Origin: a bacterium
Lineage (GTDB): Bacteria; UBA8248
Direction: 5' to 3'
Assembly (NCBI GenBank): GCA_965219955.1
Contig: OZ244799.1
Location: 480,001-544,000, forward strand
DNA length: 64,000 nt
Position 1 is the first letter of the stretch, and every line of letters starts with the position of its first letter. The notes under the pieces were generated by a model that did not search any database, had not been told where the DNA came from, and was given only the letters and a program-made list of their open reading frames with translations. A program made the position numbers and the translations under genes. This document shows, piece after piece, positions 7,393 to 33,400 of this stretch.

Positions 7393-7568
7393 CGCTTTTC
7401 TCCCAAATGAGCACGTAAGTAATTTCGGTTTGTGGCTGAAGCATAGCAAAACGATGGATATGAGAAAAACTGCCTCGTGCGCTTTGGCGAAAAAGGCCGC
7501 GTGTTTTACTATCCCGAAATCAAGGCGCGCGCGGTTTGACGTTTTTGGTTTTGAACAGCGAGACTCCG

Positions 7569-16724: not shown

Positions 16725-17750
16725 ATGGGAGGAGTCTACATCATCGGGGTCGACTTGGCGAAACACAGTTTTCAACTCCACGGCGCGTGGGCGGACGGGC
16801 GGGTCGCGTTCCGCAAGAAGCTGACGCGGGCGAAGGTGCTGGAGTTTCTGTCGTCGCAGCCTCGATGCGTGGTGGCGATGGAGGCGTGCGCGAGCGCGCA
16901 CTACTGGGGGCGCGAGGTCGGCAAGCTCGGCCATGAGGTTCGGCTCATGCCGCCGGTCTACGTGAAGCCCTACGTGAAGCGCCACAAGAACGACGCGGCG
17001 GATGCGGAGGCCATTTGCGAGGCGGCCACCCGGGCGACGATGCGCTTCGTGGCGGTGAAGAGCGAAGCGCAGCAGGGGTGTGGGATGGAGTACCGCACGC
17101 GGGATTTGCTGGTGGGTCAGCGCACGCAGGCGCGCAACGCGCTGCGCAGCCACCTGGCGGAGTTCGGGGTCGTCGAGCGGCAAGGGCCCGTGGGCCTCAC
17201 ACGGCTGGCGGCGGCGGTTCGGGGAGCGGAATCGGGCCTGCCCGAGGAGGTCCGCGAGTTGGGCGGGATTCTGCTCGCCCAGATTGGCGGCCTCGATGCG
17301 AAGGTCCGGGAGTTGACCGGACGGCTCCGGGCGAGCGCATACGCGGACGAGGAGGCGCGGCGTCTGATGAGCATCCCGGGTGTTGGTCCGATTACGGCGT
17401 CGGCGATCCGGGCGTTCGCGCCGCCGGTGGAGAACTTCCGTCGGGGCCGTGACTTCTCGGCCTGGCTGGGTCTGGTTCCCCGGCAGCACTCCACGGGGGG
17501 CAAGCCCCGTCTGGGGGGCATGTCGAAGATGGGCCAGCGCGACGTGAGGCGTCTGTTGATATCGGGCGCGATGTCGGAGATACGCTGGGCGGGGCGTCGC
17601 CGGAAGCCGCCGTGTCCGTGGCTGGCGCGGATGCTGGCGCGCAAGCCGAGGAAGGTGGTGGCGGTGGCGCTGGCGAACCGGATGGCGCGCATCGCGTGGG
17701 CGCTGATGCGGAACAAGGATGTCTACAGGGAGCCGGCGCCCCTCGCCTGA
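16725..17750 (+). CDS. IS110-family DEDD transposase/recombinase
   Basis: GVDLAK, MEACA, KNDAADAEAI, SIPGVG, GLVPRQHSTGG (catalytic Ser). Confidence 0.95.
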   Translation: MGGVYIIGVDLAKHSFQLHGAWADGRVAFRKKLTRAKVLEFLSSQPRCVVAMEACASAHYWGREVGKLGHEVRLMPPVYVKPYVKRHKNDAADAEAICEAATRATMRFVAVKSEAQQGCGMEYRTRDLLVGQRTQARNALRSHLAEFGVVERQGPVGLTRLAAAVRGAESGLPEEVRELGGILLAQIGGLDAKVRELTGRLRASAYADEEARRLMSIPGVGPITASAIRAFAPPVENFRRGRDFSAWLGLVPRQHSTGGKPRLGGMSKMGQRDVRRLLISGAMSEIRWAGRRRKPPCPWLARMLARKPRKVVAVALANRMARIAWALMRNKDVYREPAPLA

Positions 17751-18139: not shown

Positions 18140-19526
18140 CGAGTTACTGTCAAATGTTGTGTATGGCCGTCTTGAGTTCAGCGGCCTCCCTGCCGGTTTC
18201 TTTTTCATTCACCCCATTGATGAACCTCACGTCGGTGATCACGTCGGCCAGATGACCCAGGCCGCCCAGCCGCCCCCATCGCTTCTCGGCGCTCATGGCG
18301 AGTTGGTGAATCAGGCTCAGCGCCGTCTTCTCGCTCAGGCAGTTCCTCGTCTTCGCCGTTCGCAGCCGGATCGTGGCGAAGGTCGACTCGATCGGGTTCG
18401 TCGTCCGAAGACTCCGCCAGTGCGCCGCCGGGAAGTCGTAGAAGGCGAACAACTCCTCGCGGTCCCCCGCCAGGCACGCGGCGGCCTTGGGGTACTTCGC
18501 CTCCCAGGTGGCGAGAAAGCGTTCGAACGCCTTCTCCGCGTGCTCGCGGGTCTCCGCCCTCCACATCTCGTACAGCATCGGCCGCGCTTCGCGCTGAGCG
18601 CTTTTGGGCAGCTTGTCGAGAACGTTCGCCGTCTTGTGCACCCAGCAGCGCTGCGCCCGGGTCTCGGGATACACCTCGGCCAGCGCCGACCACAACCCCA
18701 GACCCCCGTCGCCCACCGCCAGCTTCGCCGCCTTTACCCCCCGCTCCCGCAGGCCGAGCAGAACCGCCTTCCAGCTCTCCTTCGATTCACGGAACCCCGC
18801 CTCCAGGGCCAGGAAGCGCTTGCGGCCCCGCGCGTCGCAGCCCACGACCACCAGAAGACAGCGCCGCTCCCCGCTGCGCACGTTCACGTAGATGCCGTCC
18901 GCCCACAAGTACGCGAACTCCTCGCCGCCCCAGTCCCGCTCGCGCCACTGTAAGTACTCGCGCTCCCAGCCCTCCTTGAGACGCGAGACGCTCGCCGGGG
19001 ACAAGCCCTTCACCGACTCGCCGAACAGCGCCGTGAGCGCCTCGCCGAAGTCGTTCGTCGATACCCCCTTCAGGTACAGCCACGGTATCACCGCCTCCAC
19101 GCGCCGCGTCTTGCGCAGATACGGCGGCAAAAGCTCCGAACGGAAACGCCGCCCCGCGCCCGACCTGTCCCGCGTCCGAGGAACTTGAACCCGCACCGGA
19201 CCCACACCCGTCAATACCTCCCGAGAAGGCAGATACCCGTTGCGCACCACCGCGCGGCGGCCCTGCGCGTCATGGTCGCCCGCATGCTCTTCCAGATAAG
19301 CCGCCAACTCCGCTTCCACCGCCTGGCGGATGATTCGTCGCGCGCCCGCGCGCAACAGTTCGCTCAACTCGTCTCGTAAGGCTGGATTCCTCAAGGGAAT
19401 CGTCGTATCTTCTCTCATGGTGGCGCATCTCCTTGTGCTGAATGACCGGGCTTTGGACAACCCTATTTCAGCAGGATGCGCCGCCTTCTTCAATTCAGCC
19501 CATACACAAGTTTTGAACGTAACTCG
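18140..19526 (-). mobile_element. IS256-family insertion sequence
   Basis: Imperfect ~27-bp TIRs (CGAGTTAC..TGTGTATGG); 8-bp target duplication GGACCCCG at 18132-18139 and 19527-19534. Confidence 0.92.
18150..19418 (-). CDS. IS256-family transposase
   Basis: RNGY, VPRTRDR, YLWADG, VGDG, QRCWVHK, RTTNPIES. Start MREDTT at 19418. Confidence 0.95.
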   Translation of the reverse strand: MREDTTIPLRNPALRDELSELLRAGARRIIRQAVEAELAAYLEEHAGDHDAQGRRAVVRNGYLPSREVLTGVGPVRVQVPRTRDRSGAGRRFRSELLPPYLRKTRRVEAVIPWLYLKGVSTNDFGEALTALFGESVKGLSPASVSRLKEGWEREYLQWRERDWGGEEFAYLWADGIYVNVRSGERRCLLVVVGCDARGRKRFLALEAGFRESKESWKAVLLGLRERGVKAAKLAVGDGGLGLWSALAEVYPETRAQRCWVHKTANVLDKLPKSAQREARPMLYEMWRAETREHAEKAFERFLATWEAKYPKAAACLAGDREELFAFYDFPAAHWRSLRTTNPIESTFATIRLRTAKTRNCLSEKTALSLIHQLAMSAEKRWGRLGGLGHLADVITDVRFINGVNEKETGREAAELKTAIHNI

Positions 19527-19574
19527 GGACCCCGGACAGGCACGGAGGCCTGTCCCTGCAATACGCGGTGTGGT

Positions 19575-19878
19575 TTGGTTCGTCATCCCGGTGTTTGCGC
19601 CGATCGTCGAACTGCTCGACTTTGCCGGCCATGCGTCCAGGCTGGACGTCGTCTATTGGTTCGCCATTCTGCTTGCGGTGGACCTGCAAACCTCTTTCCT
19701 GACGCCGCCGTTCGGATTTGCGCTGTTTTACATGAAGGGCGTGGCCTCACCCCAGGTCAGGATCCAGCAGATCTACACCGGAATCATTCCGTTCGTGCTT
19801 CTGCAACTGACCGGGCTGGCGCTTATCATGGCATTTCCGGGAATCGCCATGTGGCTGCCGAGACAACTGCTCAATTGA
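19575..19878 (+). pseudogene. 3' fragment of a TRAP transporter large permease (DctM-like)
   Basis: LQTSFLTPPFGFALFYMKGV...IYTGIIPFVLLQL...FPGIAMWLP. No start codon; 5' part missing next to REP/IS256. Confidence 0.8.
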
Positions 19879-19879
19879 G

Positions 19880-21295
19880 TCATTCCTGGGCCGGTGCGGC
19901 CAGATCGGGCCTCCGGTCGACCCACGGTCTGGCGGCCTCGAATGCGGCGGCGGCGCGGAAGATGTCTTCCTCGTGCAGGATCCTCGAAACCATCTGCATG
20001 CCCACGGGCAGGCCGTCCCGGGTCCATCCCGCCGGCACCGAGGCGGCCGGCTGGCCCGTCAGGTTGAACGGATAGGTGTAGTAGACCCAGGATACGATGT
20101 TGCGGCCGGGCAGCTCAGGCGGCGCGTTGCAGTTCACGTCGAAAGCCGGGACGGGAAGCGTCGGCGTCAGGAGCAGATCGTAGTCCTCGAAGAAGAGGCG
20201 CATCTTCTCGCGGAAGTCGTAGCGCCGGAAAACCTTGTCGTAATACTCGTCCAGTTCCTGATCGAGGGCGCCGGCGAGCACGTCGGCAACCGCCGGGTCG
20301 AGCAGGTCCGGCTTGTCGGCGAGCACATCCTTGAGCCGGGTTCCGACGCCGCCGTAGAACTCGGCCATCCAAATGGGGAGCGGGTCCTCTTCCATGACCT
20401 GTTCGACCAGGTCCACGGTGCAGCCGAGATCCTCGAACACCCTGACGGCCTCCTCGACGATCCGGACCACCTCGCCGGTCGGCTGCGCGTAGCCGAGCGT
20501 CGGGCTCCAGGCCAGGCGCATGCCCTCGACCGGACGCTCGCAGGCGGCCAGGAAGTCGGGCACGGGCTGCGCGACGCTGAAGGGATCCCGGCGGTCGTGC
20601 CCGGCGACGGCGCTCAGCAGGAGCGCCCCGTCGCGCACGGTGCGGGTGAGCGGGCCGACGTGGCCGAGCGTCGGCGTGGCGCTCGCCGGGAAGACCCCGA
20701 CGCGCGCGAACTGCGCCTTGATGCCGAAAAGGCCGCTGAGCGAACTCGGGATGCGGACGGACCCGCCGCCGTCGGTTCCGAGCGCGAACGGTGTGACCCC
20801 GGCGGCAACGCTGGTCGCGGCGCCGCAGCTCGATCCGCCCGGCGTCTTGGCGAGATTCCAGGCGTTCGGCGTCACCCCGGTCAGCGGGCTGTCGCCGACC
20901 GCCTTGCAGCCGAACTCGCTGGTCGTCGACTTGCCGACGATGCAGCCGCCCTGCCGCCGCACCCGGTCCACCGAGGGCGCGTCGACCGCCGCGACGTTGT
21001 CCGCCATCACCCGGGAGCCGAAGGTCAGCTTCAGGCCGTCCACGGCGATCAGGTCCTTCACCGAGATGGGTAGGCCGTGCAGCAGTCCGAGCTCTTCGCC
21101 GGACATGACGGCCTTTTCGGCCTGCCGCGCCGCTTCGAGGGCGAGGTCTGGCGAGGTCTGGACGAAACAGTTGAGCGTCGGCTCCAGCCCGTCCATGCGC
21201 TCCAGGGCCGACCCGACGAGTTCGACCGGCGAGATGTCGCCGCGCGCGATCAGGTCCTTCAACTCGATTGCCGTCATGAACGCGAAATCGCTCAT
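19880..21295 (-). CDS. Amidase (amidase-signature family)
   Basis: ISVKDL, TPGGSSCG, GTDGGGSVRIPS. Confidence 0.93.
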   Translation of the reverse strand: MSDFAFMTAIELKDLIARGDISPVELVGSALERMDGLEPTLNCFVQTSPDLALEAARQAEKAVMSGEELGLLHGLPISVKDLIAVDGLKLTFGSRVMADNVAAVDAPSVDRVRRQGGCIVGKSTTSEFGCKAVGDSPLTGVTPNAWNLAKTPGGSSCGAATSVAAGVTPFALGTDGGGSVRIPSSLSGLFGIKAQFARVGVFPASATPTLGHVGPLTRTVRDGALLLSAVAGHDRRDPFSVAQPVPDFLAACERPVEGMRLAWSPTLGYAQPTGEVVRIVEEAVRVFEDLGCTVDLVEQVMEEDPLPIWMAEFYGGVGTRLKDVLADKPDLLDPAVADVLAGALDQELDEYYDKVFRRYDFREKMRLFFEDYDLLLTPTLPVPAFDVNCNAPPELPGRNIVSWVYYTYPFNLTGQPAASVPAGWTRDGLPVGMQMVSRILHEEDIFRAAAAFEAARPWVDRRPDLAAPAQE

Positions 21296-21747
21296 CGTTC
21301 CTGTCCGTCGAGCCACCCGCCAAGCGTCTCGAGCGTCTTCGCAAACCGCTCGATTTCATCCACGTCTATCGCGCTGAAGGTCCGGAATAGATCCTGGCCG
21401 ATGTCCTTGTGGATCCTGTCGGGCAGCGCCGTGGTCTCATCCCTGGCAGTAACGATTTTCGAGCGCTTGTCGGTCGGGCTATCGGCGAAATCCACCGGTT
21501 CCATATTGCGGAACTTTGCCAGGGCCTTCGTAACGGCAGGCTGGCCGACTTCCACAGCCGCTGCGATGTCCGATATGCGGCTCCCTCCCCGCGCTCGTTG
21601 CCTGACGATGTGATGCAGGATGCCGAACTGACCCAACGTCAGACTGTGGGGTTCCGGCAAAATGGTCATGCGTGTTCCGAAAAGCTGGCAGACAATGGAC
21701 AGCCAGGTTGCACATCCGGATACCAGCGGGCCTGTGCGTTTCGACAT
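21292..21747 (-). CDS. MarR-family transcriptional regulator (possibly degenerating)
   Basis: LTLGQFGILHH, ISDIAAAVEVGQPAVTKAL, DKRSKIV. Confidence 0.7.
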   Translation of the reverse strand: MSKRTGPLVSGCATWLSIVCQLFGTRMTILPEPHSLTLGQFGILHHIVRQRARGGSRISDIAAAVEVGQPAVTKALAKFRNMEPVDFADSPTDKRSKIVTARDETTALPDRIHKDIGQDLFRTFSAIDVDEIERFAKTLETLGGWLDGQER

Positions 21748-21823
21748 GGTTTCACGATTCGCTTGATTTGCATTCCAAAGAATATAAAAAAATATTCCAG
21801 GGATTACAAATTGAAATAGAGCA

Positions 21824-22140
21824 ATGTTCCTGAAGCTGCTGGACGGCGTCACCGCCCTCCCGCTTTGGACCCATGCAGCTGCCGCGGTCGCGACAGTCGC
21901 CAGCTTTCAATGGACGAGGGGCTGGCTTGAAGCCGGCTATGCCGCGTCACGGCGCCCCGTGGATTTCGCCACCGGCCAGACCGCGTTCAGCGGCGAAAAG
22001 ATCAAGAGCTACTTCGCCCATACGCAGAAGACGGGAATTGGACCACCCAGGTCATCGACTACGGGTTCATCCTTGCCATGGCGTGCATGGGGCTGTTCGT
22101 CTGCACGTTCGTCGCGCGGTTCAACCGCGGCGGCAGGCGG
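21824..22140 (+). pseudogene. Frameshifted, truncated membrane protein gene
   Basis: PVDFATGQTAFSG continues in another frame as QVIDYGFILAMACMGLF and is then cut by repeat copy 2. Confidence 0.55.
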
Positions 22141-22311
22141 CAGGGGCCGCCCGCGAACGGCGTCTGCGGAATGCGCGGTCCTGGTCATCACGCCCTCCCC
22201 TGTGGGCTGGTTCCGGTCAATGGCGCGGGAATCCTTCGCCCCGCGCCCCGCGCGCGATACCGCAGTCCGGGTTTTCAGAGAGTACGGCAACTGTGGGGCA
22301 ATGCGTGGTCA
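22140..22311. repeat. Copy 2 of the ~170-bp diverged direct repeat
   Basis: Colinear similarity to 16100-16272. Confidence 0.8.
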
Positions 22312-22403
22312 AAGCCAAGTGGGAAAAAGGGAGTTGTTTTACTGATATTGATGTTTTTCTCGTCCTCGGTAAACTCTTCTTTTAGCGAATAATTTCATAC
22401 AAT

Positions 22404-22474
22404 TTGTGTCTATTATAGCAAATAGACACAATATATAGTTTTCCCTTTGAAAAAGTGTATTTATCCAGTATACT
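22404..22474 (+). promoter_or_regulatory. Operator palindrome and sigma70-type promoter of the defence operon
   Basis: Perfect IR TTGTGTCTATT-N6-AATAGACACAA (22404-22431); TTGAAA(22447)-N16-TATACT(22469). Confidence 0.6.
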
Positions 22475-22481
22475 ATGAGTC

Positions 22482-22688
22482 ATGAGGGATGTTGGCCGGA
22501 GTATTCACGTTCAGCGCGACTTATGGCAAAAGTTTCTAGATGCCTGCCGTGCAGATGAGCACTCCGCGGGCACAGGTGCTCAAGGATTTTTGAGAGCCTA
22601 TGTTGCAAGAAAGGGTTCGCGCGAGTACCAAAACGAATCTGATGATAACCACGCAATTGAAACGCGGCAACACAAGAAGGCACTCTGA
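22482..22688 (+). CDS. Small putative ribbon-helix-helix regulator, probably leaderless
   Basis: RSIHVQRDLWQKFLDAC...GFLRAYV has a beta-helix-helix pattern; ATG is 7 nt after the -10 box. Confidence 0.45.
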   Translation: MRDVGRSIHVQRDLWQKFLDACRADEHSAGTGAQGFLRAYVARKGSREYQNESDDNHAIETRQHKKAL

Positions 22689-22704
22689 TGAGGATAAGGG
22701 GAAC

Positions 22705-23586
22705 GTGAGGGTGGCATCTGAACTAGCGCATGACAACATTACGCGGCTTCAGCGGGATCAAATGGTTGATATCGTATGTGAAGACAACTTGAAATATATG
22801 CGGAAACTACCTGATCAGTTCATGCATCTCATTATCACTTCGCCACCATACAACAACGGTAAAGCCTATGAATTGCGCAAATCGCGTGAGCGATACATTG
22901 AAGAGCAAGCAGCCTGTATCGCAGAAGCAGTCCGGCTCTTGCACCCACAAGGTTCCATTTGCTGGCAAGTGGGTAATCATATTGATGATGGAGAAGTTTT
23001 TCCGCTAGATATCCTACTCTACGATCTATTTAAAAACCATGGACTGAAACTGAGAAATCGGATTGTTTGGACCTTTGGCCACGGCCTCCATTGTCAAAAG
23101 CGTTTATCAGGGCGACATGAAACGATTCTTTGGTTCACAAAGTCTGACGACTACATTTTTAATCTTGATCCTATTCGAGTTCCCTCAAAATATCCCAACA
23201 AGAAATACTTTAAGGGACCCAAAAAAGGCGAGTTTTCCGGCAATCCTCTCGGAAAGAATCCTTCGGACGTATGGGAAATACCGAACGTAAAATGGAACCA
23301 CGTTGAAAAAACCGACCATCCCTGCCAATTTCCAGTAGGACTTGTGGAAAGACTTGTTCTAGGTCTGACCAACATGGGCGACAACGTATTCGATCCATAC
23401 GTCGGGGTTGGTAGTTCCGCCATCGCGGCTCTTTTGCACGAACGTAACGCCTATGGGTGTGATTTTGAGCAGGGATATATTGATATTGCCTGGGAACGTA
23501 TTCACCAGCTTCGAGAGGGAACTTTGCGCACTCGTCCCATGAATAAGCCAGTGTACGAACCCCGAAAAAGGGGGAGCGATGAATGA
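22705..23586 (+). CDS. Site-specific DNA amino-methyltransferase (beta class, probably N4-C); start uncertain (ORF open from 22600)
   Basis: TSPPYN precedes HPCQFP and DPYVGVGSS (motif IV before motif I). Confidence 0.92.
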   Translation: MRVASELAHDNITRLQRDQMVDIVCEDNLKYMRKLPDQFMHLIITSPPYNNGKAYELRKSRERYIEEQAACIAEAVRLLHPQGSICWQVGNHIDDGEVFPLDILLYDLFKNHGLKLRNRIVWTFGHGLHCQKRLSGRHETILWFTKSDDYIFNLDPIRVPSKYPNKKYFKGPKKGEFSGNPLGKNPSDVWEIPNVKWNHVEKTDHPCQFPVGLVERLVLGLTNMGDNVFDPYVGVGSSAIAALLHERNAYGCDFEQGYIDIAWERIHQLREGTLRTRPMNKPVYEPRKRGSDE

Positions 23587-24044
23587 AGTTTGTCGCAACA
23601 TACTCCCATCACAATGGTGTCGCTGTCTGGAAAGAACGTGACCTCTATGAATGGGTCACGGACATCTTCGAAGCTCCTAGGGTGAAGATAAAGCCAAAAG
23701 GCACAAGCGATATTCGCAATCATGTGAAAAATGAGTTGAGCGACGAAGGGTGGGCGTTTAACGTCCGAGTTGATCCTGAAGCTGATTTGACGGTTTTTGC
23801 GAAAAAATCTGACCTCGTTGTTCAGATACAAACCGGCAACATTAGCCGTTATGCATACGACCTACTTAAGATACAACACCTTTATAGTAAGAAAGAAATC
23901 GAAGGAGCAGCGCTTGCGGTCCCCACCAAGGAAACAGCCAAGGTGTTAGGCAGCAACATTGCTTATGACGAGCGTGTCTGGAACGAACTGAATATTTTTG
24001 ACCGCGTGATTACCGTACCGTTGATGATTATTGCATTCAAATAA
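23583..24044 (+). CDS. BglII/BstYI-like restriction endonuclease-fold protein
   Basis: LSDEGW, VQIQTGNISRYAYDLLK, VPLMIIAF; translationally coupled to the MTase (ATGA overlap). Confidence 0.65.
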   Translation: MKFVATYSHHNGVAVWKERDLYEWVTDIFEAPRVKIKPKGTSDIRNHVKNELSDEGWAFNVRVDPEADLTVFAKKSDLVVQIQTGNISRYAYDLLKIQHLYSKKEIEGAALAVPTKETAKVLGSNIAYDERVWNELNIFDRVITVPLMIIAFK

Positions 24045-24057
24045 AGGGGAAGTGCAG

Positions 24058-25356
24058 ATGTACAAGATAAGCACCAGTCCGCTTGCTCAACGAAAAGAGC
24101 TAGTCGACCAAGCGTGCAAGGTGTCGAAGGAAACGCTGCCTTTTTACGAGTTCCAGAATAAGAGGCACGATTTATCGATCATTCGGCTCGACCTAAATGT
24201 GCCTGTTTACCGGATGCAGAACTTCAGAACACGCACGACACAATTAAAGTATGTGCGCGATCATAAAAAACCGGCAGACTTCTTTAGCAGTGGTCAGGAG
24301 AATGAGGAATCTCAACAGGCACAACACGCCCTCCTTGTTGTGTTTGCTAAGGAGGGGCGTACCGGTTCGATCTTGCCCATTTTTGACGCACTCCAAAGTG
24401 AAGAACAGAGAGAGCCACTGATAATCACGGCTGGTGGTGTGGTTGTAAACGGGAATCGTCGTCTCGCTGCAATGCGAGAGCTATTCACTGAAAGGCCGGC
24501 ACAGTTTCCCCGCTTTAGTCATGTCGATTGCGCTGTGCTCCCGGGAAATATAACGCCTGATGAGATTCGTGAAATTGAAGTCCGGCTTCAGATGCGTCAG
24601 GAAACAAAGTTGCCATATGAATGGGTCAATGAATCCCTAGCTATTCAAGAGCTTATACAAAGTGGGAAATCGGTCAGCCACATTGCTGATTTGATGAAGA
24701 AGAGGAAACGAGATGTTGAACGAGCCGATCAGGCGCTAAGGGAAGCCGATCTTTATCTTAAAGAGTGGGCACATACGCCGGGTGAATATCAAGAAGTGGA
24801 AGATGGAGAACAGCATTTTAATGATCTCGCTAAAGGGCTAGAAGGCAAACAGGGTGATGTATTAGAAGTTAGCCGTCGTATCGCGTGGGCACTTTTCTCG
24901 GCCAACAACCTTAAGGAGGGCCGACTCTACGGCTACAACTTTAGTTTTGGAAATCGAACCGACGAGGTAGTCGCATCTCTCGTTGAACGCCTAGATATAG
25001 ATTTGACGGTTGATAAAGAAGACAGCAATGATGACGATGATTTAGACATCGACATTGATGACGAAGAAGTAACTTCCCTTGATCCCTTAATTGAAATCTT
25101 TGATGACCCGTCTCATCGGCAGATGGTCACCGACGAGGTTGTCGCGATATGCGAGAACATCATTGAGAAGGACCGACAGGGCAAGATTGGACGGCGTGCT
25201 CTCAAGGCGCTCCAAGATGCCAACGGCAAACTACAGGAAGTAGATTTGAGCAAAGCTGAATCGTCAACATACGATGCTATCGATTCTCAACTTGATAGTA
25301 TTCTCGAGCGTGCTGCCGATCTTAAGAGAAAACTCGAGCCTTACAAGTCAAGTTAG
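24058..25356 (+). CDS. ParB/Sulfiredoxin-like N-terminal domain protein
   Basis: QREPLIIT..GVVVNGNRRLAAMREL; acidic linker and helical C-terminus. Confidence 0.7.
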   Translation: MYKISTSPLAQRKELVDQACKVSKETLPFYEFQNKRHDLSIIRLDLNVPVYRMQNFRTRTTQLKYVRDHKKPADFFSSGQENEESQQAQHALLVVFAKEGRTGSILPIFDALQSEEQREPLIITAGGVVVNGNRRLAAMRELFTERPAQFPRFSHVDCAVLPGNITPDEIREIEVRLQMRQETKLPYEWVNESLAIQELIQSGKSVSHIADLMKKRKRDVERADQALREADLYLKEWAHTPGEYQEVEDGEQHFNDLAKGLEGKQGDVLEVSRRIAWALFSANNLKEGRLYGYNFSFGNRTDEVVASLVERLDIDLTVDKEDSNDDDDLDIDIDDEEVTSLDPLIEIFDDPSHRQMVTDEVVAICENIIEKDRQGKIGRRALKALQDANGKLQEVDLSKAESSTYDAIDSQLDSILERAADLKRKLEPYKSS

Positions 25357-25376
25357 CCGATTTAGAGTGATCTTGT

Positions 25377-27278
25377 ATGAATGTGAGTTCGCGTCTCGAT
25401 ATAAGCATTTCATATGACGAAGATCAGCTTCGAGGGACGCTGAGTGTTGATGATCCCACCGAAAGTGGGGTGTGGGATCGGTTTCGCCAATCTGCAATTT
25501 CTCTAACTGAAGATTACAGGCTCACTCCCACATCCATTGGCATTCCCTGGTCGTCAGTTCTGTCGCTAATCCGAATCTTTGCGCCTAGTCAACGAAAGTG
25601 GAATTTCCGGTTTAAGCCGGATGAGACAGCTAGGGGACCCATTGACGAATTTCTATCTCAGCACAAAAAAGTTAGAGAAGCTCAGTCCGCTGCGGTTCAA
25701 AGTCTGAGTGCGGAAGAAGTATCAGAGAAGCTTAATGTACTTGGTTTCACTCAGCGTCAACTGAAGGATTTTCAGATCCGAGACTTACAGCGACTTGTAT
25801 CACTGCCGAATGGTGCAAATTTCTCAGTGCCAGGTGCCGGAAAAACGACCGTCACACTTGCTCTAAACTTGTTAACTCATCGAGAAGGTCAGCACATATT
25901 TGTCGTAGGGCCGAAAAGCTCATTCCCAGCCTGGTCGGTAGTAGTGGATGACTGTATTGGCGAAAACGCCCCGGACTGGGTACGCGAGCCATTTACTATT
26001 TTAACTGGCGGTGCCGATGCAGTGCGTAGGTCCCTAAATTCAGGTGCCTCCCGCTTCATAATAAATTACGATCAACTCATTCTCCTATCCGATGTATTCT
26101 TCAACTACCTTGCTCAAAATCCGGTCCATTTAGTTTTGGACGAGTCCCACAGGATGAAGGGTGGGCTAGCAGTTAAACGAGGAATAGTTCTCCTAAACGC
26201 AGCGACATTGCCTATTCGACGCGATATCCTAAGTGGAACGCCGATGCCCCAGGGACCAAGTGATTTACAGTCTCAACTCGAATTTTTGTGGCCTGGCTCA
26301 GGACTTGGAACCCAAATTGCCCTTGGTAGTACGCCCAAGCAAGTTATTGGAAATTTGTATGTTCGAACTACTAAAGCAGATCTTGGGTTGCCGCCAGTGC
26401 GTCGACACTTCCTACAGGTAGACATGGGTAAAGGACAATCCGCGCTTTACGCTATAGTCCGTAACGAGGCTTTGAGGGATCTAAGTTCGCTTCGATCTGG
26501 TAGCGGTGTCGATATCGTTCGCGCTAGGCGGTCGGTTATGCGGCTATTAAAGCTTTCTGCCAATCCGGTACTTGCACTCCGATCTATTATGAGTGAGGCG
26601 CCAACCGTCCAATCTGGTGTGGTGCAGCAAGTCATGGAGGATGGTCCATCGCCTAAAATGCTAGCAGTTCGGGATTTGGCACGAGAATTGGCTTCTAAAG
26701 GTCGTAAAGTCGTCATATGGAGTATCTTTACAAATACGCTCCAATGCATGGAGCGAATGCTTGCCGATCTGAACCCGGTGATGGTTTACGGAGCAGTCCC
26801 AACTGGAGAGCCGTCTGATCCTAACTCCCGCGAAGGGATGATGAGGCGGTTTCATGAGGATGGGAATTGTATGGTATTCATTGCAAATCCTGCCGCGGCT
26901 GGAGAAGGCATTAGCCTGCATCATGTTTGCCATGATGCGATTTATTTGGATCGCAGCTACAACACTACGCACTATCTACAATCGATAGATCGCATTCATC
27001 GTTTGGGCTTGCCGCCTGAAACTCAAACAAACGTGTATATCGTCCAAACAAGAGCGCCGAAGAGTCTTGGTTGCGTGGACCATTCGGTTAGCCGTCGACT
27101 GGCTATCAAGCTTAGGGCTCTTCAACAACTCCTAGATGATGAAGACTTGCACCAAATTGCGCTTGATGAAGAAGAGACTGAAGAGCCAATTGACTACGAC
27201 ATTGACCCTGAGGATTTGATGGATTTGATCGAAGAACTGGAAGGACGTACCTCCTTCGACGAGGGTGAAGGCGTGTGA
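25377..27278 (+). CDS. SNF2-family helicase/ATPase
   Basis: PGAGKT, LDESHR, LSGTP, ANPAAAGEGISL, QSIDRIHRLG. Confidence 0.9.
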   Translation: MNVSSRLDISISYDEDQLRGTLSVDDPTESGVWDRFRQSAISLTEDYRLTPTSIGIPWSSVLSLIRIFAPSQRKWNFRFKPDETARGPIDEFLSQHKKVREAQSAAVQSLSAEEVSEKLNVLGFTQRQLKDFQIRDLQRLVSLPNGANFSVPGAGKTTVTLALNLLTHREGQHIFVVGPKSSFPAWSVVVDDCIGENAPDWVREPFTILTGGADAVRRSLNSGASRFIINYDQLILLSDVFFNYLAQNPVHLVLDESHRMKGGLAVKRGIVLLNAATLPIRRDILSGTPMPQGPSDLQSQLEFLWPGSGLGTQIALGSTPKQVIGNLYVRTTKADLGLPPVRRHFLQVDMGKGQSALYAIVRNEALRDLSSLRSGSGVDIVRARRSVMRLLKLSANPVLALRSIMSEAPTVQSGVVQQVMEDGPSPKMLAVRDLARELASKGRKVVIWSIFTNTLQCMERMLADLNPVMVYGAVPTGEPSDPNSREGMMRRFHEDGNCMVFIANPAAAGEGISLHHVCHDAIYLDRSYNTTHYLQSIDRIHRLGLPPETQTNVYIVQTRAPKSLGCVDHSVSRRLAIKLRALQQLLDDEDLHQIALDEEETEEPIDYDIDPEDLMDLIEELEGRTSFDEGEGV

Positions 27279-28093
27279 AAGCGGACTTAGATATTGATCG
27301 TTGCTTTACTGTCGCAGCCTATTCTGCGTTCATGGTGCTGCGACAATACCTCGCCAAGAATCCAAATGCTACACCAAAAGATGCTGTGAACATCATTGAG
27401 GCCACAAATGCTGATGATGCGGGACTAGATTTTCTTGGTGGCCAAGAAATATACCTACACTTGAATGATATACTTGATCTCTCGTCTGGCACGAACCATC
27501 TTCGTGTTGTTATTGGTGAATTGATCCGCTCAAGTAGTCCATGGTGGATTCGCCTTATCCCTTACGGGCGAGAAAAAGTGAGATCCGCCTTACACCTAAA
27601 CCAAGTGCAATGCCTTAGAGAAGCAGGGTTATTGGATCCCGTTCCCGACGCTGAAGCCATCGCTTGGTGGGATGAGATAGCAGCTCTCATGAGAGGGGTG
27701 GTCGATAGCGAGCGCATGCTTCAAGCGAGACAAGCAGAACGGTTATCCCTTGAGTATGAACGAGCTCGCTTGAAAAACTTGGGAATTCATTTAGAACCCG
27801 TCTGGGTATCATTGGATGATAACACCCTTGGCTATGACATTCAGTCTTATAACAAGGAACCTAGTGGTATCGTGAGCCGCTTAATCGAAGTCAAAAGTAC
27901 AACCAATGACAGCATCTACATTACCAGAAACGAATGGCGTAACGCAGTGAGCACCAACCAAAGTTACTTGTTCCACGTTTGGTTCATGCCAGATCAAGAG
28001 GTGGTCGAGTATACTACCAATGCTATGGAACCCAGTATTCCTCTTGATAAGGGAACGGGTGAGTGGCAGAATGTCCGAGTAACTTTGTCATGA
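27275..28093 (+). CDS. DUF3883/NO VEIN-type PD-(D/E)xK nuclease domain protein
   Basis: AERLSLEYER, GYDIQS, IEVKST, ITRNEW. Confidence 0.8.
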   Translation: MKADLDIDRCFTVAAYSAFMVLRQYLAKNPNATPKDAVNIIEATNADDAGLDFLGGQEIYLHLNDILDLSSGTNHLRVVIGELIRSSSPWWIRLIPYGREKVRSALHLNQVQCLREAGLLDPVPDAEAIAWWDEIAALMRGVVDSERMLQARQAERLSLEYERARLKNLGIHLEPVWVSLDDNTLGYDIQSYNKEPSGIVSRLIEVKSTTNDSIYITRNEWRNAVSTNQSYLFHVWFMPDQEVVEYTTNAMEPSIPLDKGTGEWQNVRVTLS

Positions 28094-28194
28094 TCTTGGC
28101 ATCTCGTTAGATGGATTAGTGTATTTTCCTTGCGCCTCAACATCCAGAGTACTCCCATCTCTGGCGAGTGGGTATTCATACATCCGATCATAAA

Positions 28195-28830
28195 ATCAGG
28201 ACTTTTTAAACAACCCTCTTGTCAGGGGGGCTTTTCTTGCGCCTTCTCGTCGGGAGCGGTATCGCCTTTACCCCCCTCAAGGGGGGTGGGGCAGGGGGAT
28301 GGTTTTAAGTCAAACGAAGGCGAGTGGATGGTGTGGCGGATTACGCGCCGGTTCCCCTTTCTGCCACGCAGGCGGCCACGAAACCTCATCCCGAGCAGGC
28401 CCGAAGGGCCGTACGAGGGAGCGCCTCTTCGGCAGGCACGGGACAGGCCCTTCGATACAAACACTCCTTTCTCGGGGCTGTTGATAAAGTCATTCTTGGT
28501 CGTAATGACGGCCAAAACCCGAAACCGGGCGGAGCCGCAGTCTGTCGCCTTGAAAACCAACCCCCCCTACCCCCCCCTTGTCAGGGGGGCAAGAAAAAGC
28601 AAAACCCCCTCGGCCCAAAGGGGGCGCATCGCTTTTTTATACCCCTCTGACAAGGGGGGGGTAGGGGGGGTTGGTTTTATCCCCTGACAAGACGGGCTTT
28701 TTCAACAACCCCTCCCCGGTCGTGTTCGACCTCCGGCGGCTACTCGGGGTGAGGGGCGCCGGGCAACGCCGGAGCCTGCCCCGGACGAAGTCGAGGGGCC
28801 GCTGCCCGGGGTGAGGCGGAGCGGCGGCCG
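28195..28830. repeat. Composite repeat cluster including a MITE-like unit at 28474-28712
   Basis: GGGGCTGTTGATAAA...TTTTTCAACAACCCC termini around CCCCCCTACCCCCCCTTGTCAGGGGG palindromes. Confidence 0.75.
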
Positions 28831-28842
28831 GGCGACCGCGCG

Positions 28843-29772
28843 TCAGGGCGCGCGCTTCGCGCCGAAGGCGCCGAGGTAGCGGGTGGTGTCGAACACGCCC
28901 CAGGCCTCCTCGTGGCCGGGGCCGTGGAAAGCGCCGGCGAGGTAGTCGCTCCCCACCGTCCCGGTCGAGAAGCGCCCCGTCGAAAGCGGCATGTCCGCCC
29001 AGCCCGGCGCGCCGACGCTGTGCCCCGGCACGGAGACGGATACCCCCACGCGCGGGCGCGAGAGGTCCGCGACCGTCACCGTCACCGTCCCCTGAAGCCG
29101 CTCGAACGCGCCGGCGGGGCTCGCCTCGACGATCCCGCTCCAGGTCGCGCTCCCCGTCCCCGAGGGGTTCGAGCCCGAGACCCCGCCCGCGGCGTAGGCC
29201 CGTGCGAAGGCGAACTCGCCGGCGAGCGTCCCCTCACCGACCTCGCCGGTGAGGGGACCGGAACCCACCTCCAGCGCCGCGTAGCCGTGCGCGCCCCAGA
29301 AGCCGTAGCTCTCGACCTCCGGCGCCGCGGTCACCCGGACGCCCTCCACGCTCTCGTCGGTGATATCGAGACGCCCCCGGGTGGTCGCGGCGTCGAACCC
29401 CCCGCGCCGGGCGAGAGCCGCCGCGCTCAGGCTGACGCCGAGAACGGCGGCCGAGCCCGTCAGGCTCCCTATGGTGACCGCCGTCCCGTCCGCCGCCTCG
29501 CAGCGCGCGCCCGTGCACTCGAACGTGTCGACCAGGTCCTCCGCGAGCGTCTCGCCCCCGCCCTCGAGTGAATAACGGGCGCGGGCGCTCGTGAGCAGCA
29601 GCGCGTCGGCGCCCGCGAGGATTTCGCCGAGCCGGACCACCGCCGGGTCCGAGCGCACCCGTTCGAGCTCCGCCTCGCCCGGCGCGGCGGTCGCCCCGCC
29701 GCCGCCGCCGCCCCCGCAGGCCGCCAGCGCCAGCGCGGCGAAGGCCAGACCCCCGAGTATCTTCATCCCCAT
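28843..29772 (-). CDS. Surface lipoprotein with a TbpB-like C-terminal beta-barrel
   Basis: Lipobox LAAC followed by poly-Gly; GSATWSG, GAFHGPGHEEAWGVF, GAFGAKR. Confidence 0.7.
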   Translation of the reverse strand: MGMKILGGLAFAALALAACGGGGGGGATAAPGEAELERVRSDPAVVRLGEILAGADALLLTSARARYSLEGGGETLAEDLVDTFECTGARCEAADGTAVTIGSLTGSAAVLGVSLSAAALARRGGFDAATTRGRLDITDESVEGVRVTAAPEVESYGFWGAHGYAALEVGSGPLTGEVGEGTLAGEFAFARAYAAGGVSGSNPSGTGSATWSGIVEASPAGAFERLQGTVTVTVADLSRPRVGVSVSVPGHSVGAPGWADMPLSTGRFSTGTVGSDYLAGAFHGPGHEEAWGVFDTTRYLGAFGAKRAP

Positions 29773-29819
29773 GAACCACCGCGCCTCCAATCCCCTGCCG
29801 ATCATCTTCCGCTCCTTCT

Positions 29820-30490
29820 TCAGAACACGAGTTTGCGGCAGGGACGGTTCGCGAACCGCCCCCGCGAGAAAATCCCGATCATCGAATTGTTCACCGTAGC
29901 AGGGACAGGCCTTTGCGCCTGTCCGAGGCCTCCGTGCCTGTCCTGCCCTCCGTGGTTGTCCTTCGTCAGGACAGGCACGGAGGCCTGTCCCTACAAAACC
30001 ATCGCGCCTGCGTCGCGTGAATCTCCATGCCGCCGACCCCGAATCAGGCTTTTTCAACAGCCTCTTAAGGGCCTGTTAAAAAACCCCTCTCCACCTCATC
30101 CTGAGTAGCGGCCCCTCGACTTCGCTCGGGACAGGCTCCGCCGTTCCCTGACACCCCTCATCCTGAGTAGGCGCGTAAGCGCCGTATCGAAGGTCAAACG
30201 CGATTGATGAATGAGCGTTTGCTCTCGCTCGGCGCGAGGCGTTCGACTCCCCGCGCCCTTCGATACGCCGCCCTTCGACAAGCTCAGGACAGGCTCTTCG
30301 GCGGCTACTCAGGGTGAGGAAAGAGGCGTTGGCGGTTTGCGGAGGGCAGACCAGGCTTTTTCAACAGCCCTCCTTAAGGGGGGTAGAGGGGTGCCTTTCA
30401 AGGCGAGAACCCCCGCCGCCGCTTAACCTCCCAACCCCCCTTGTCAGGGGGGCTTTTCTTTTATCCCCTCGTCGGGGGATATCGCCCTCC
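29820..30490. repeat. Tandem MITE/REP-like units
   Basis: ~29925-30062 is nearly identical to ~41915-42052; a second unit spans 30069-30370; TTAA at the junctions. Confidence 0.8.
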
Positions 30491-33400
30491 TCAGAACCTG
30501 TAGCGCACGTCGAGCCTGAGCCCGTGCGACGGGTCCGCCGTCTCGCGCTCCGTCCGCTCGCCGGCGAACTCCACGTCCAGGTCCGCCCGCGCCGCCTCGA
30601 AGCGCGTTCCCAGCCTCAGGCGGCTGCTGCTCTCCCCCGCGCTCGTCTCGGCGAAGGGCGTCACCAGACCCCGCCCCGCCCACGCGAAACCGTAGCCCAC
30701 CCGCGCATCCACGGCGGCCTCCCGCGCCACCGCCGCGAGCCTCGGTATCTCGTCGCGCCAGAGCGCCTCCGCGCCGCCCGCAGGCGCCCCCCAGCGCGGC
30801 GTCAGCGCGAAGGAGAGCCCCCGGCCCTCCGCCCCGGGACCCATCCGCACCGTCACGCTCACGCCTTGTTCGCGCGCGTCGTCCTCCGAATGCGCCGCCA
30901 GCCACCGCCCGCGCGCTTCTACCTGGAGCCGCGCCGCCGTGTAGCGCGCCCCGCCCGCAATCTCGATACCGCTCCCCGTGAGGCCGTCGCCCCCGTCGCG
31001 GCGCGCCGCCGCCTCCAGGAAAGGCGTGAGCGCAGCACCCCCGCCCAGTTCGACCCGGCGCGAAGCCTCCAGCCCCAGCCGCAGGCGGCGCGTGTCCGCG
31101 TTCACGCCCGAGATGGTCTCGGGACCCGCCCCGACCTCCATCCGCACGAAGCTCGCGTCCGCGCGCACCGCCAACTCGAAACCCCCCACCGGGGCGAGTT
31201 CGCGCCTCAGACCCACCGACGCCATCCGCATGTCGAGGTCGCCCGTCTCGCGCTCCTCATCCTCCGGCCGGTGGCGCGCCTCGCCTTCGCCTGCGCCCAG
31301 CACCAGGCGCAACTCCAGCCCGTTCGCGAACCGCCAGCGCCCGTAGGGATACGCCGCCGTCAGCGTCGTCTCCAGGCGGCCCCGGCCGGATGCGCCCTCC
31401 GAATCGAAGCCGTAGTCCGTCTCGCTCGTCCCGTGCGAGAGCGCAAGGCCCGCCACCCACGGACCCCGCCGCATGTCGAAGCCCAGCCAGCCCGTCCGCG
31501 TTTCGCCCTCATAGCGCGCTCCCGCCTCCGGGCGGCCCTCGAAGGAGCCGAAATCACTCCGGCCCCACACCGCCCACAGCGGCGCGCCGGGAGCCCCGTC
31601 CCCATCGGCCGAGGCCGGCGTCCAGGTGAACGCGCTCGCGCGCATGAGTTCATCGCTCGTGATTCCCGCCGCGCCGCACCCCCCGGGGGCCGCGCGCTCG
31701 TAGACGGGGCGCTCGTAGCGCTCCGCCGGGCACGCCCGCTCCAGAACCGCAGGTACGGCCCCGCCGAGCAGAACCTCCCGCCCCGCCAGCCGCACCCCCG
31801 TCCCGGGGGCGATGTCGGCGAAGCGCGCGTTCACGTTGCCCAACGCGCCCGCGAGCGTCCGCGTCCCCACGGCCGCCAGCGTCCGCCTCAGCACCCGCCG
31901 CACCGCCTCCCGGGCCGCGGGGTTCGGCGCCGCCTGGATCGTAACCGCGAAGGTCAGCGCCGCCGCGTCCGCCACCGCGCGGTTCGCGTCCGCGTCGTGG
32001 GCCGTATACGTGAACTCGTATCGCCCCGCCGCCTGCGGCGTCCCCGAAAGCCGCCGCGTCGCCGGGTCGAAGACGAGCCCCGCCAGGCCCGCCGGCTCCG
32101 AGGTCAGGCCGTAAGTCAGCGCGCCGTCGCCGCCCGCCGCCGCCGGCAGCGCCACCGGCTCCATCGCCGCGCCCCGCGCCAGCACCAGCGCCGCCACCGA
32201 CGCGCCGCCGAAGCTGGGCGCCGCGTCGGGCGTTCCGCCGCCACCGCCGCCCCCGCCACCGGGGGGCGGCGTTCGCGTCGTCGGTGGCGGGCCATAAGGC
32301 ACATCTATAGACTCGAGCAATCCCGCGCCGTTGCCCGCGTAGTCCTGAATCCGGTAATCGTCGTCGATATGATAGGTCACCCTCACCCTGTCGTCCTCGG
32401 CCACCGCCTTTGCCAGCGTCAGGATGACCGCCCGGTCGCGTACCCTGACGCTGGTCACGCCGACTATCTCAACATCCAGTCTGACGGGGGTGTTGGCATA
32501 GTTGGCGTCGTTGGGGTCTCTGGTGTCGAAGGTGCGTCGCACGCGGAAGGAGCCCGTGAGCGGTGCGACGCTCGGGTCCAGCTCCTCATCGTAGGTCAGC
32601 GTCAGCGCCGCCCCTTCCACCGTCGCGGCCACAAGCATCGGGCGCCTGGTGTCCCCGGCCAGCCGCCGATTGCGGATCGGGCGCGCGAGGTTGCCCGCGT
32701 AGTCCTGGATGCCGGCGTTTCCCGGGCCAGAACCCGCCGGGACCTCGTAGGTCAGCCGCACGGCCTGGCCTTCGGCCACCGCCGATGCCAGGGTCAGGAC
32801 GACCGCGCCGCCGCGTATCTCGACGTCGGTGACGGTCCGGCGCTGTCCCGCCACCCTCACCGAGAAGCGCTCCGGCCCCGGCGTGCGGCCCGGGTTCAGG
32901 GTCTCGCTGTAGGTCAGCACAAGCACCGACCCCTGCGCCGTCGCGCTCCACAGCGCCGGGGGCGTCGTGTCGGGCTCCGCCGGCGTGTCGTTGGCCGCCC
33001 CGAAGCCGGAGAAGTCCTCCGCGTCGTTGCCGGCCTTGTCCTGGAGCGGATTGGCGCCCGGCGCCGTGTAGCTCACCGTGACCGCCTCGCCGTGGGCGAC
33101 CGCCTGGCCCAGGGTCACCGTCGCGGTCATGCCGGAGACGGTGGCCGCGCCCGCCCCGGCGATGTTCCGGGGCGCGCCGTCCGGGGGCGTCGCGCTCACG
33201 CGGAACGCGCTCCCCGCCGGCCTCGAGCCGGCGTCCAGCGCTTCGTTGAAGGTCACGGTCAGCGTATTCTCGTACACCGTCGCGTCGGTGGCGGCGGGCA
33301 GCGCGGCGTCGGGCGTGTCGTTGTCCGCCGACTGGCTGGTGAAGCCGAACGCGTCGTTGCCGGCCGCGTCCTGGAGCGGACCGGTGCCCGGCGCCGTGTA

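Follow-up and report, generated by a model that had tools for sequence, protein, structure and literature searches.

We analysed a 64,000-nucleotide (nt) stretch of DNA, called the window hereafter, from a bacterium of the UBA8248 lineage (assembly GCA_965219955.1, contig OZ244799.1, forward-strand positions 480,001 to 544,000). Positions 22404-28230 of the window hold an intact, low-GC operon with all of its genes on the + strand. Five of these genes, referred to below as the cassette, encode a DNA methyltransferase (MTase), a small protein resembling the restriction endonuclease (REase) BstYI, a ParB-like protein, an SNF2 ATPase and a DUF3883 protein:

22600-23586, + strand: MTase, open reading frame (ORF) of 328 amino acids (aa)
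23583-24044, + strand: BstYI-like protein, 153-aa ORF
24058-25356, + strand: ParB-like protein, 432 aa from ATG 24058, or 441 aa from TTG 24031
25377-27278, + strand: SNF2 ATPase, 633-aa ORF
27275-28093, + strand: DUF3883 protein, 272-aa ORF

For the ParB-like protein, the protein collection entry uses the 432-aa form from ATG 24058. The MTase and BstYI-like genes overlap by 4 nt (23583-23586), as do the SNF2 and DUF3883 genes (27275-27278). GC content across the operon is 0.457-0.488 in 1-kb windows (22500-27999), and the flanks lie at 0.605-0.708 upstream (19500-21999) and 0.616-0.759 downstream (28000-32499). An earlier, sequence-only reading of this DNA had described a lower-GC, co-directional operon with overlaps at 23583-6 and 27275-8, and both the ORF calls and the GC profile agree with that description.

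The arrangement was followed in other genomes by scanning one genome per species with a profile of the ParB-like protein. Among the 210 stretches that matched, 169 proved to be relatives, and the 80 best of these make up the set of loci used here. In these 80 loci, tblastn detected the ParB-like protein in 80, the SNF2 protein in 79, the MTase and the BstYI-like protein in 77 each, and the DUF3883 protein in 75, with the misses falling mostly at contig ends. All five genes were present as complete ORFs on one strand in 62 loci, and their order was the same in 62 of 62. The MTase and BstYI-like genes stand next to each other in 68 loci, with an overlap in 50, and the SNF2/DUF3883 junction overlapped in 58 of 71. 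These results demonstrate that the five genes are co-inherited in a fixed order with coupled junctions, and are not a chance neighbourhood. The sequence-only reading had named neighbourhood conservation as a check on its proposal, and the conservation is there, both for the five genes in the same order (62/80 loci) and for the ParB-SNF2-DUF3883 trio (80, 79 and 75 of 80).

Judged by record titles, the hosts belong to about 11 phyla. They include Alpha-, Beta- and Gammaproteobacteria, Acidobacteriota, Verrucomicrobiota, Bacteroidota and Bacillota, together with Nitrospinota, Nitrospirota, Spirochaetota, Planctomycetota and Binatia. Conservation among standard cassettes is highest for the MTase, at 66-83% identity to the window; the corresponding ranges are 49-71% for the SNF2 protein, 44-80% for the BstYI-like protein (given once as 44-82% across phyla), 34-62% for the ParB-like protein and 30-52% for the DUF3883 protein. 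A few loci depart from the standard layout. Three from Bacillota (L024, L044 and L052) keep the BstYI-like gene, and their sole MTase match is weak (25-27%) and on the opposite strand, being in L024 a different, 492-aa enzyme. Another locus (L019) has its MTase on the opposite strand, downstream.

The first protein of the cassette matched the PF01555 methylase family (E = 2.2e-48) and the PADLOC model MTase_II (E = 9.4e-79). Its motif IV reads SPPY, within 'TSPPYN', and places it among the beta-class N4/N6 amino-methyltransferases. The nearest solved structure was M.RsrI (E = 1.2e-33), whose DPPY aligns with the SPPY of the window protein. Enzymes that methylate N4-cytosine, M.BamHI and M.PvuII for example, typically carry SPPY or SPPF, and the motif suggests N4-cytosine as a candidate target. 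Since homologues align only from about residue 40-58, the true start of the MTase is probably downstream of 22600.

The second protein, of 153 aa, gave a sub-threshold match to the Pfam BglII family (E = 0.0021; 18.2 bits against a cut-off of 26). Its AlphaFold2 (AF2) model, with a mean confidence (pLDDT) of 96.7, has a BamHI-like alpha/beta REase fold. When the model was compared against the Protein Data Bank (PDB) by Foldseek, 16 of 16 matches at E<=0.001 were BstYI, OkrAI, BglII or BamHI, with TM scores of 0.70-0.82 normalised to the query; the next match had an E value of 0.07. A profile built from 36 homologues and searched against PDB sequences likewise returned BstYI (E = 1.2e-5), OkrAI and BamHI. 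The solved enzymes, at 194-223 aa, exceed the window protein by 40-70 residues. In the 74 of 76 loci with an ORF that no contig end truncates, the length was 151-154 aa, and the shortness of the window protein is therefore native to the family.

Inspection of the active-site region revealed that the family lacks the expected catalytic residues. In OkrAI the active site consists of E71, D86, E99 and E101, equivalent to E77, D94, E111 and E113 of BamHI, according to the structural report on OkrAI (PMC3025578). The family profile segment 'fQlQtGN' aligned on 'IEVQFGK' of BstYI and 'EWETGN' of OkrAI, so that Q81 and Q83 of the window protein correspond to E99 and E101 of OkrAI and to E128 and Q130 of BstYI. 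The family thus has Gln-x-Gln in place of the catalytic Glu-x-Glu/Gln. Residues were then counted in 156 family members (120 database sequences, 35 from the loci, and the window). Position 81 was Q in 150, H in five and C in one, acidic in none of the 156, and position 83 was Q in 156 of 156. The equivalent of the catalytic Asp is T70 in the OkrAI alignment and F72 in the BstYI alignment, with no conserved Asp; position 72 was never acidic (F in 141, T in 10, L in two, S in two and Y in one). From this we infer that the 153-aa protein reads DNA without cutting it, and we propose it as the sequence-recognition subunit of the system.

In the source databases the family is labelled 'restriction endonuclease' or 'BglII/BstYI family type II restriction endonuclease', and the sequence-only reading had likewise assumed a restriction-modification (R-M) core. 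With Gln-x-Gln and no conserved Asp, the cassette probably has no self-sufficient core of the simple Type II kind. The assumption underlies an alternative that we regard as unlikely, namely that two systems stand side by side, a self-sufficient Type IIP R-M pair and an independent ParB-SNF2-DUF3883 unit acting as a back-up or second layer. It can draw on the database names, on the general tendency of defence systems to cluster, and on the trio itself, which occurs also beside other R-M genes and, in three of the 80 loci, without the BstYI-like gene. However, the catalytic Glu is replaced by Gln, His or Cys in 156 of 156 members and no conserved Asp precedes it in the neighbouring strand. The 153-aa family was moreover seen solely in this cassette context, in 77 loci that were gathered through the ParB-like profile, and the junctions among all five genes are tight and often overlapping.

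The SNF2 protein contains PF00176 and PF00271, and its motor residues are invariant in 36 of 36 homologues: G153, G155, K156 and T157 of Walker A, D255, E256 and H258 of the DExH motif, and Q535, R539 and R542 of motif VI. Its N-terminal ~130 aa gave no Pfam match even at E<=5. The DUF3883 protein ends in a NOV_C domain (PF13020, E = 1.1e-15) of the PD-ExK nuclease class, in which none of 36 homologues deviates at D188, E205, V206 or K207; its N-terminal domain (about residues 1-150) also had no Pfam match at E<=5. Because the 153-aa protein is without its carboxylates and the DUF3883 triad is invariant, we take the DUF3883 protein to be the nuclease, and it is the proposed cleavage subunit. 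As a precedent, the isolated DUF3883 domain of HmaA is reported to be a nickase that is needed for defence against T4 (PMC11232893); the Tiamat preprint is a further source on nicking by this domain.

The ParB-like protein had no Pfam, PADLOC or NCBIfam match, and a single-sequence search of the PDB returned none. Its AF2 model (pLDDT 87.5, predicted TM score 0.76) was most similar in Foldseek to KorB (E = 8e-4, TM score 0.61 on the target), and the further neighbours in the PDB were ParB with CTP-gamma-S or CDP, Spo0J, Noc and PadC. Matches of its C-terminal helices to nucleoporin p58/p45 (E = 0.012) were weak coiled-coil similarities and were taken as spurious. The model consists of an N-terminal ParB/Srx domain, a helical middle, an acidic disordered linker (321-336) and a C-terminal coiled coil. 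The motif NGNRR, which resembles Box II and carries an Arg pair, is invariant along with about 30 more positions. Proteins of the ParB fold are reported to bind CTP, ATP or GTP, and a fusion with a Sigma70 domain to bind ATP (PMC12704722). The family is large, comprising at least 903 clusters at 90% identity among 7999 candidates scored. The profile matched 1884 representatives of 50% identity clusters at E<=1e-3, a count that includes distant variants, and 523 at E<=1e-30. Distant relatives carry the NCBI names 'ParB/RepB/Spo0J family partition protein' and 'ParB N-terminal domain-containing protein'. With PF01555, the BstYI fold (AF2/Foldseek), the ParB/KorB neighbours, PF00176/PF00271 and PF13020, all five domain classes that had been assigned from the letters alone are borne out.

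Next we asked whether the DNA around the cassette bears a mark of the site that it would recognise. Hexamers were counted on both strands of 991 kb of pooled flanks of the 80 loci, with the cassettes removed, and compared with the expectation of an order-4 Markov model. The most depleted words included GGATCC, with an observed-to-expected ratio (O/E) of 0.57 (rank 2 of 4096), and AGATCT, with 0.60 (rank 3). AGATCC and GGATCT, at 0.72 (ranks 17-18), were the sole non-palindromes among the 25 most depleted words. Together these words make up RGATCY, the specificity of BstYI. Non-palindromic words of the form YGATCR had an O/E of 1.13 in the same pooled flanks. The depletion was distributed over the loci rather than carried by a few: RGATCY was under expectation in 69 of 80 and over it in 10, with a bootstrap interval of O/E over loci of 0.59-0.71, and the non-palindromic pair AGATCC/GGATCT was under in 61 and over in 16 (interval 0.63-0.81). 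Flank sequence was shared by three locus pairs only. The depletion did not weaken with distance from the cassette over 0-10 kb (0.67, 0.80, 0.72 and 0.63) and was 0.71 inside the cassettes, and a cassette-free replicon of Rhizobium leguminosarum (100 kb) gave 1.14 for the non-palindromic words. These results suggest that the DNA travelling with the cassette has been selected against RGATCY, under a real restriction pressure there.

The tetranucleotide GATC was examined separately. It is rarer than expected in the whole window, with 250 occurrences observed and 361 expected (order-2 Markov), and is not rarer in the pooled flanks of the 80 loci (6531 and 6530, respectively). The shortage of GATC in the window may reflect another GATC-directed system in the host.

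On balance we lean, by a little, towards reading the locus as an intact, recently acquired R-M-like defence operon that splits the work of a restriction enzyme among four proteins. In the mechanism that we propose, the MTase would mark the RGATCY sites of the host. The dead BstYI-like protein, probably as a dimer, would bind unmethylated RGATCY on incoming DNA without cutting it, and would then recruit or license the ParB-like protein, acting as a nucleoside triphosphate (NTP)-binding switch or clamp, and the SNF2 motor. ATP-driven translocation would bring in the DUF3883 nuclease, with a nick or cleavage as the outcome. A small ribbon-helix-helix (RHH) protein encoded at the head of the operon, together with a palindrome, may time expression such that methylation comes first, as controller proteins do in Type II systems. 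We thus infer that the system works as an NTP-dependent restriction enzyme, following the logic of Type I, Type III, Type ISP or CglI systems. Of the two functions that the sequence-only reading had offered, a translocating restriction complex is the one favoured by the missing carboxylates. The other, a backup that fires when R-M is inhibited, is disfavoured on the same basis, since it needs an active R-M core that the cassette seems to be without.

Several observations weigh against this reading. Regarding the site, the palindromic words were depleted in the cassette-free R. leguminosarum control too (0.46 and 0.61), a second cassette-free control, a 50 kb Bradyrhizobium plasmid, gave 0.86, and the cassette-free controls total 150 kb from two replicons. 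On the Paracoccus denitrificans replicon that carries a cassette, 100 kb taken far from it showed the non-palindromic words undepleted (1.06), and depletion in the local flanks was weak; we therefore claim the depletion only for the 7-10 kb around cassettes. The flanks of the window itself hold 22 RGATCY sites against 28.1 expected, which fits a recent arrival and adds nothing to the case. Regarding the nuclease, D77 of the 153-aa protein is acidic (D/E) in 151 of 156 members and D68, the partly acidic position nearest to the equivalents of the catalytic Asp, in 110 of 156, and these residues might serve an unorthodox site; the call of a dead nuclease is one of sequence and profile alignments and residue counts, not of active-site superposition. 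Regarding the modification, M.RsrI, the nearest solved relative of the MTase, is an N6-adenine enzyme, so that N4-cytosine is no more than a candidate target for the window MTase. Regarding the composition, three of the 80 loci (L020, L033 and L068) hold an MTase of ~52% identity and the ParB-SNF2-DUF3883 trio with no BstYI-like gene, so the trio can exist without that gene, or with an unrecognised partner. Finally, the link to the AbiR system, discussed below, is drawn from architecture and from homology to AbiR-like plasmid loci of Lactobacillales, not from AbiR's own sequences.

Two of these three variants have an unannotated ORF alongside that might replace the BstYI-like gene. Beside the variant at 9003-14054 of L033 lies a 142-aa ORF (8576-9004, - strand), and beside that at 8857-14025 of L020 a 332-aa ORF (7036-8034, - strand).

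The cassette was then compared with described systems. PADLOC 2.0.0 gave generic matches only and no system-specific model for the cassette. Besides MTase_II, these were REase_II (E = 1.6e-5), the helicase cores ZorD, DpdE, DrmD and BrxH, and, for the DUF3883 domain, PD-T4-1, PDC-S36, TmtA and HmaA. In NCBIfam, nothing exceeded the cut-offs for the operon proteins. A literature search on the gene combination found no description of the cassette, supplements and non-open papers lying outside that search. The earlier exclusion of BREX, DISARM, Druantia and Hma stands, as no signature of these systems was present and only the generic SNF2 and nuclease matches appeared in PADLOC, with no full-system match. 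For DISARM, defined by a DrmA helicase and DrmB (DUF1998) along with DrmC or DrmD and a methylase, no DrmB was found, and the SNF2 protein gave weak generic matches to DrmD (best E = 3.6e-6) and DrmA (E = 2.2e-4), scoring 26 bits against a cut-off of 610 on the NCBIfam DrmD model. For BREX/Pgl, none of PglZ, BrxC/PglY and PglX was detected, and the only match was a weak one to the BrxHII helicase core (E = 4e-6).

Closer likenesses were found with systems that combine a motor with a separate reader or nuclease, each of them with clear differences. Hma resembles the window in having an SNF2 motor together with a DUF3883 nuclease and methylase (PMC11232893). In contrast to the two ORFs of the window, HmaA is a single protein with SNF2 and a C-terminal DUF3883 domain. 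The window MTase is of PF01555, not of the DUF1156 type of HmaB, and Hma as described there is without ParB-like or BstYI-like proteins. The ORFs scanned, in the operon and its flanks, include neither HmaB (DUF1156) nor the ATPase HmaC (DUF499). The PADLOC HmaA model matched the DUF3883 protein only (E = 0.0034); the SNF2 protein matched 20 models at E<=0.01, and HmaA was none of them. The Dpd (7-deazaguanine) system is described as having a ParB-like ATPase, DpdB, alongside the SNF2 protein DpdE (PMC12839542). Its full set runs from DpdA, DpdB and DpdC to DpdD-K; the window has no tRNA-guanine transglycosylase (DpdA) gene, and its SNF2 protein matched DpdE in the helicase core at E = 1.7e-9 or weaker. 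CglI and NgoAVII, compared by description only, are reported to use a site-recognising subunit and a separate superfamily 2 motor whose translocation is needed for cleavage (PMC5861437). Unlike the window proteins, the R subunit of CglI also carries the nuclease, the motor is DEAD-Z1 and not SNF2, and there is no ParB-like protein.

Type IIP systems of the BstYI/BglII/BamHI/OkrAI type share the fold, the MTase gene directly upstream (here overlapping by 4 nt) and, in the case of BstYI, the RGATCY site seen in the depletion. They differ in that the window protein is shorter, is without catalytic carboxylates and is always followed by three further genes. Among ParB-related proteins, the ParB/KorB/Noc clamps and the ParB/Srx NTPases (DndB, DpdB and the DUF262 domain of GmrSD) include the best structural neighbours of the window protein and are likened to it by the Arg pair in NGNRR; the window protein differs from them by a long extra N-terminal segment and the C-terminal coiled coil. 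The locus also differs from ParABS partition systems. The ParB-like gene has no adjoining ParA, with no ParA-type gene within 16.6-35 kb of the window, and in 62 of 80 loci it stands among one constant set of four defence-type genes.

The closest parallel came from AbiR, an abortive infection system reported in 2000, whose home is plasmid pKR223 of Lactococcus lactis. A 2026 review lists its parts as the sigma70-like AbiRi, the ParB-like AbiRii, and AbiRiii with an N-terminal endonuclease-like and a C-terminal Snf2 region (PMC13064643). According to the same review, AbiR is encoded around the LlaKR2I R-M system, depends on the LlaKR2I methylase, in whose absence it is toxic, and it protects from phage and lowers phage DNA replication by a mechanism that the review calls unclear (PMC13064643). 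Makarova et al. (2013) report a frequent association of AbiR with R-M systems (PMC3632139). AbiR and the cassette have these elements in common: ParB-like protein, SNF2 ATPase, nuclease and DNA methylase. A site with a GATC core would be central to both, LlaKR2I being a Sau3AI isoschizomer. They differ in four respects. The window is without a sigma70-like gene, and the BstYI-like gene occupies the slot before the ParB-like gene; its nuclease is a separate DUF3883 protein, whereas that of AbiR is fused N-terminally to Snf2; it has its own beta-class amino-MTase, whereas AbiR borrows the methylase of the neighbouring system; and it adds the catalytically degenerate BstYI-like protein.

Related modules were found on other plasmids. 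In Rhizobium, Mesorhizobium, Azospirillum and Kozakia, a 280-319-aa protein is followed by ParB-like, SNF2 and DUF3883 proteins, with Vsr or Dcm genes close by in three of the four loci. The 288-aa protein in this position in one of them (L082) matched the PADLOC Type II REase model REase_II (E = 2.8e-19) and had no PDB, NCBIfam or Pfam relative. On pIBB109_AgSa_3 of L. lactis (L089, 1-8189), Type III Mod-Res genes are followed, with overlaps, by ParB-like, SNF2 and 201-aa proteins, and the impression is of a Type III system to which the same ParB-like and SNF2 module has been added. The 201-aa protein was considered as a DUF3883 relative and rejected (hhalign probability 0.2); it belongs to no known family. 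Plasmids of Lactiplantibacillus and Exiguobacterium carry a ParB-like protein with a PLD-SNF2 fusion (fusions in L087 and L090), in L087 near a Dcm fragment and an REase of the Sau3AI family. The ParB-like proteins of these loci were aligned with the window family by hhalign with probabilities of 99.7 (L082), 97.4 (L087) and 96.5 (L089), and the window SNF2 protein with the PLD-SNF2 protein of L087 with a probability of 100 (E = 1.8e-40, 32% identity over 435 columns). Judged by these homologies, ParB-SNF2(-nuclease) is a module that recurs beside various R-M-type genes.

Since the cassette follows the core logic of AbiR (ParB-like protein, SNF2 motor, nuclease, methylase dependence), it is best read as a distant architectural variant of AbiR and not as a new category. 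The proposal of an undescribed system therefore held in one part, as no model or description of this cassette was found, and gave way in another, as its kind is partly known through AbiR, to the extent that the review describes it. What would set the cassette apart is the use of a nuclease-dead Type IIP enzyme as a dedicated subunit, an MTase of its own and a split-off DUF3883 nuclease.

A wider reading can be put forward only tentatively, and we consider it more doubtful than probable. AbiR would be the sole studied member of a broad superfamily of 'ParB-SNF2-nuclease' engines with swappable modules: a dead Type IIP enzyme here, a Type II REase-like protein on the rhizobial plasmids, and Type III Mod-Res in Lactococcus. 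The dead BstYI-like protein would then read unmethylated RGATCY and load a ParB-type, NTP-gated clamp on foreign DNA, and the SNF2 motor and DUF3883 nuclease would be engaged by this clamp. If true, the ParB clamp mechanism would be seen here in immunity for the first time, together with a natural case of a restriction enzyme turned into a pure DNA-reading subunit.

Further features at the two ends of the operon are as follows:

22404-22431, no strand assigned: 28-nt palindrome with 11-bp arms and a 6-nt centre (stem of 11 pairs), just 5' of the promoter-like site
22447-22474, + strand: sigma-70-like promoter candidate, TTGAAA, 16-nt spacer, TATACT (10/12 matches)
22482-22688, + strand: 68-aa ORF, probable RHH controller, overlapping the longest possible MTase ORF
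28214-28230, + strand: terminator-like hairpin with T-rich tail, 120 nt past the last stop, a consensus match only

The promoter candidate was the best of 9 sites in 22000-28800, where shuffled sequences averaged 7.2 sites, and is thus a consensus match only. The palindrome is operator-like, and we suppose an operator role for it. The 68-aa ORF of the window had no Pfam match even at E<=5, and a homologue was detectable in one of the 80 loci, that of the closest relative (L002), where it lies 5' of the MTase (tblastn, 44% identity, E = 8e-8). The small ORF of that locus (8448-8660) has a weak, sub-cut-off match to RHH_9 (E = 0.0034) and is likewise preceded by a TGTGT...ACAC inverted repeat. 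Among the 80 loci, the RHH-like ORF with an upstream inverted repeat was present only in these two, which suggests a controller module gained by one sub-lineage.

The surroundings of the operon were inspected for signs of mobility. An IS110-family transposase (16596-17750, + strand) and a Mutator-family transposase (18150-19586, - strand) lie 3-6 kb 5' of the island. The other flanking genes encode an amidase and a MarR regulator, and a giant SWM-repeat protein is encoded downstream on the opposite strand. No convincing pair of direct repeats or att-like sites bounds the island at 22.4 and 28.1 kb, and no credible tRNA lies at its border. The picture is that of a small island of recent acquisition. 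Two further observations concern the downstream side. ARAGORN called an 87-nt tRNA-Phe (GAA) at 33858-33944 (- strand) inside the 1388-aa SWM-repeat ORF (30491-34657, - strand), probably a false positive; the Rfam gathering search found no RNA family anywhere in the window. The GC-rich intergenic region 28130-28720 contains a 57-nt inverted repeat (28553-28609 and 28622-28678, 86% complementary) and two copies of an 18-nt hairpin-forming G/C-rich unit (28214-28231 and 28573-28590). These repeats look like a repetitive extragenic palindromic (REP)-type or miniature repeat element and may mark the border of the island.

A low-GC cassette in a high-GC host with two transposases upstream could also be chiefly a selfish addiction module acting by post-segregational killing, in which the nuclease machinery attacks the host chromosome once the MTase is lost and phage protection is incidental. 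We consider this quite improbable. It agrees with the 66-83% identity of the MTase across distant phyla, from which frequent horizontal transfer follows, and with the reported toxicity of AbiR without its methylase (PMC13064643). Yet AbiR is also reported to protect against phage. Addiction is not exclusive of defence, as R-M systems in general do both, and the depletion of RGATCY in the flanks fits either role.

The distribution of the cassette was also surveyed. It was absent from 5,426 complete E. coli genomes (blastn of 22700-26600). In 50,697 phage records, tblastn gave one weak partial match for the ParB-like protein and none for the 153-aa protein. In 72,556 plasmids, tblastn found the ParB-like protein in five records and the SNF2 protein in 25, and the P. 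denitrificans replicon was one record of the plasmid set with a standard cassette. The phage counts bear on a further explanation, that the cassette serves the establishment of a mobile element or anti-restriction and not host defence. Polyvalent proteins, which belong to phages and conjugative elements, are reported to combine SWI2/SNF2, adenine methylase and ParB domains (PMC5512222), ParB-MTase fusions are reported as enriched in prophages (PMC12704722), and related pairs occur on plasmids. The cassette proteins, however, are separate and not polyvalent, among them are an REase fold and a PD-ExK nuclease that is conserved, the window has no genes for conjugation or phage structure next to the cassette, and the phage records hold nearly none of it. 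We regard this explanation as highly improbable, and keep to that of an R-M-like defence operon with divided functions.

If this reading is true, it would help to explain AbiR by placing it in a large family, within which the ParB-like profile counts 1884 representatives (E<=1e-3). The cassette offers a testable case of a Type IIP enzyme that has lost catalysis, yet has been retained across phyla inside a larger machine, and it points to a possible part in immunity for the ParB NTP-switch fold when joined to an SNF2 motor. The database labels 'restriction endonuclease' for the 153-aa family and 'partition protein' for the ParB-like family are probably misleading.

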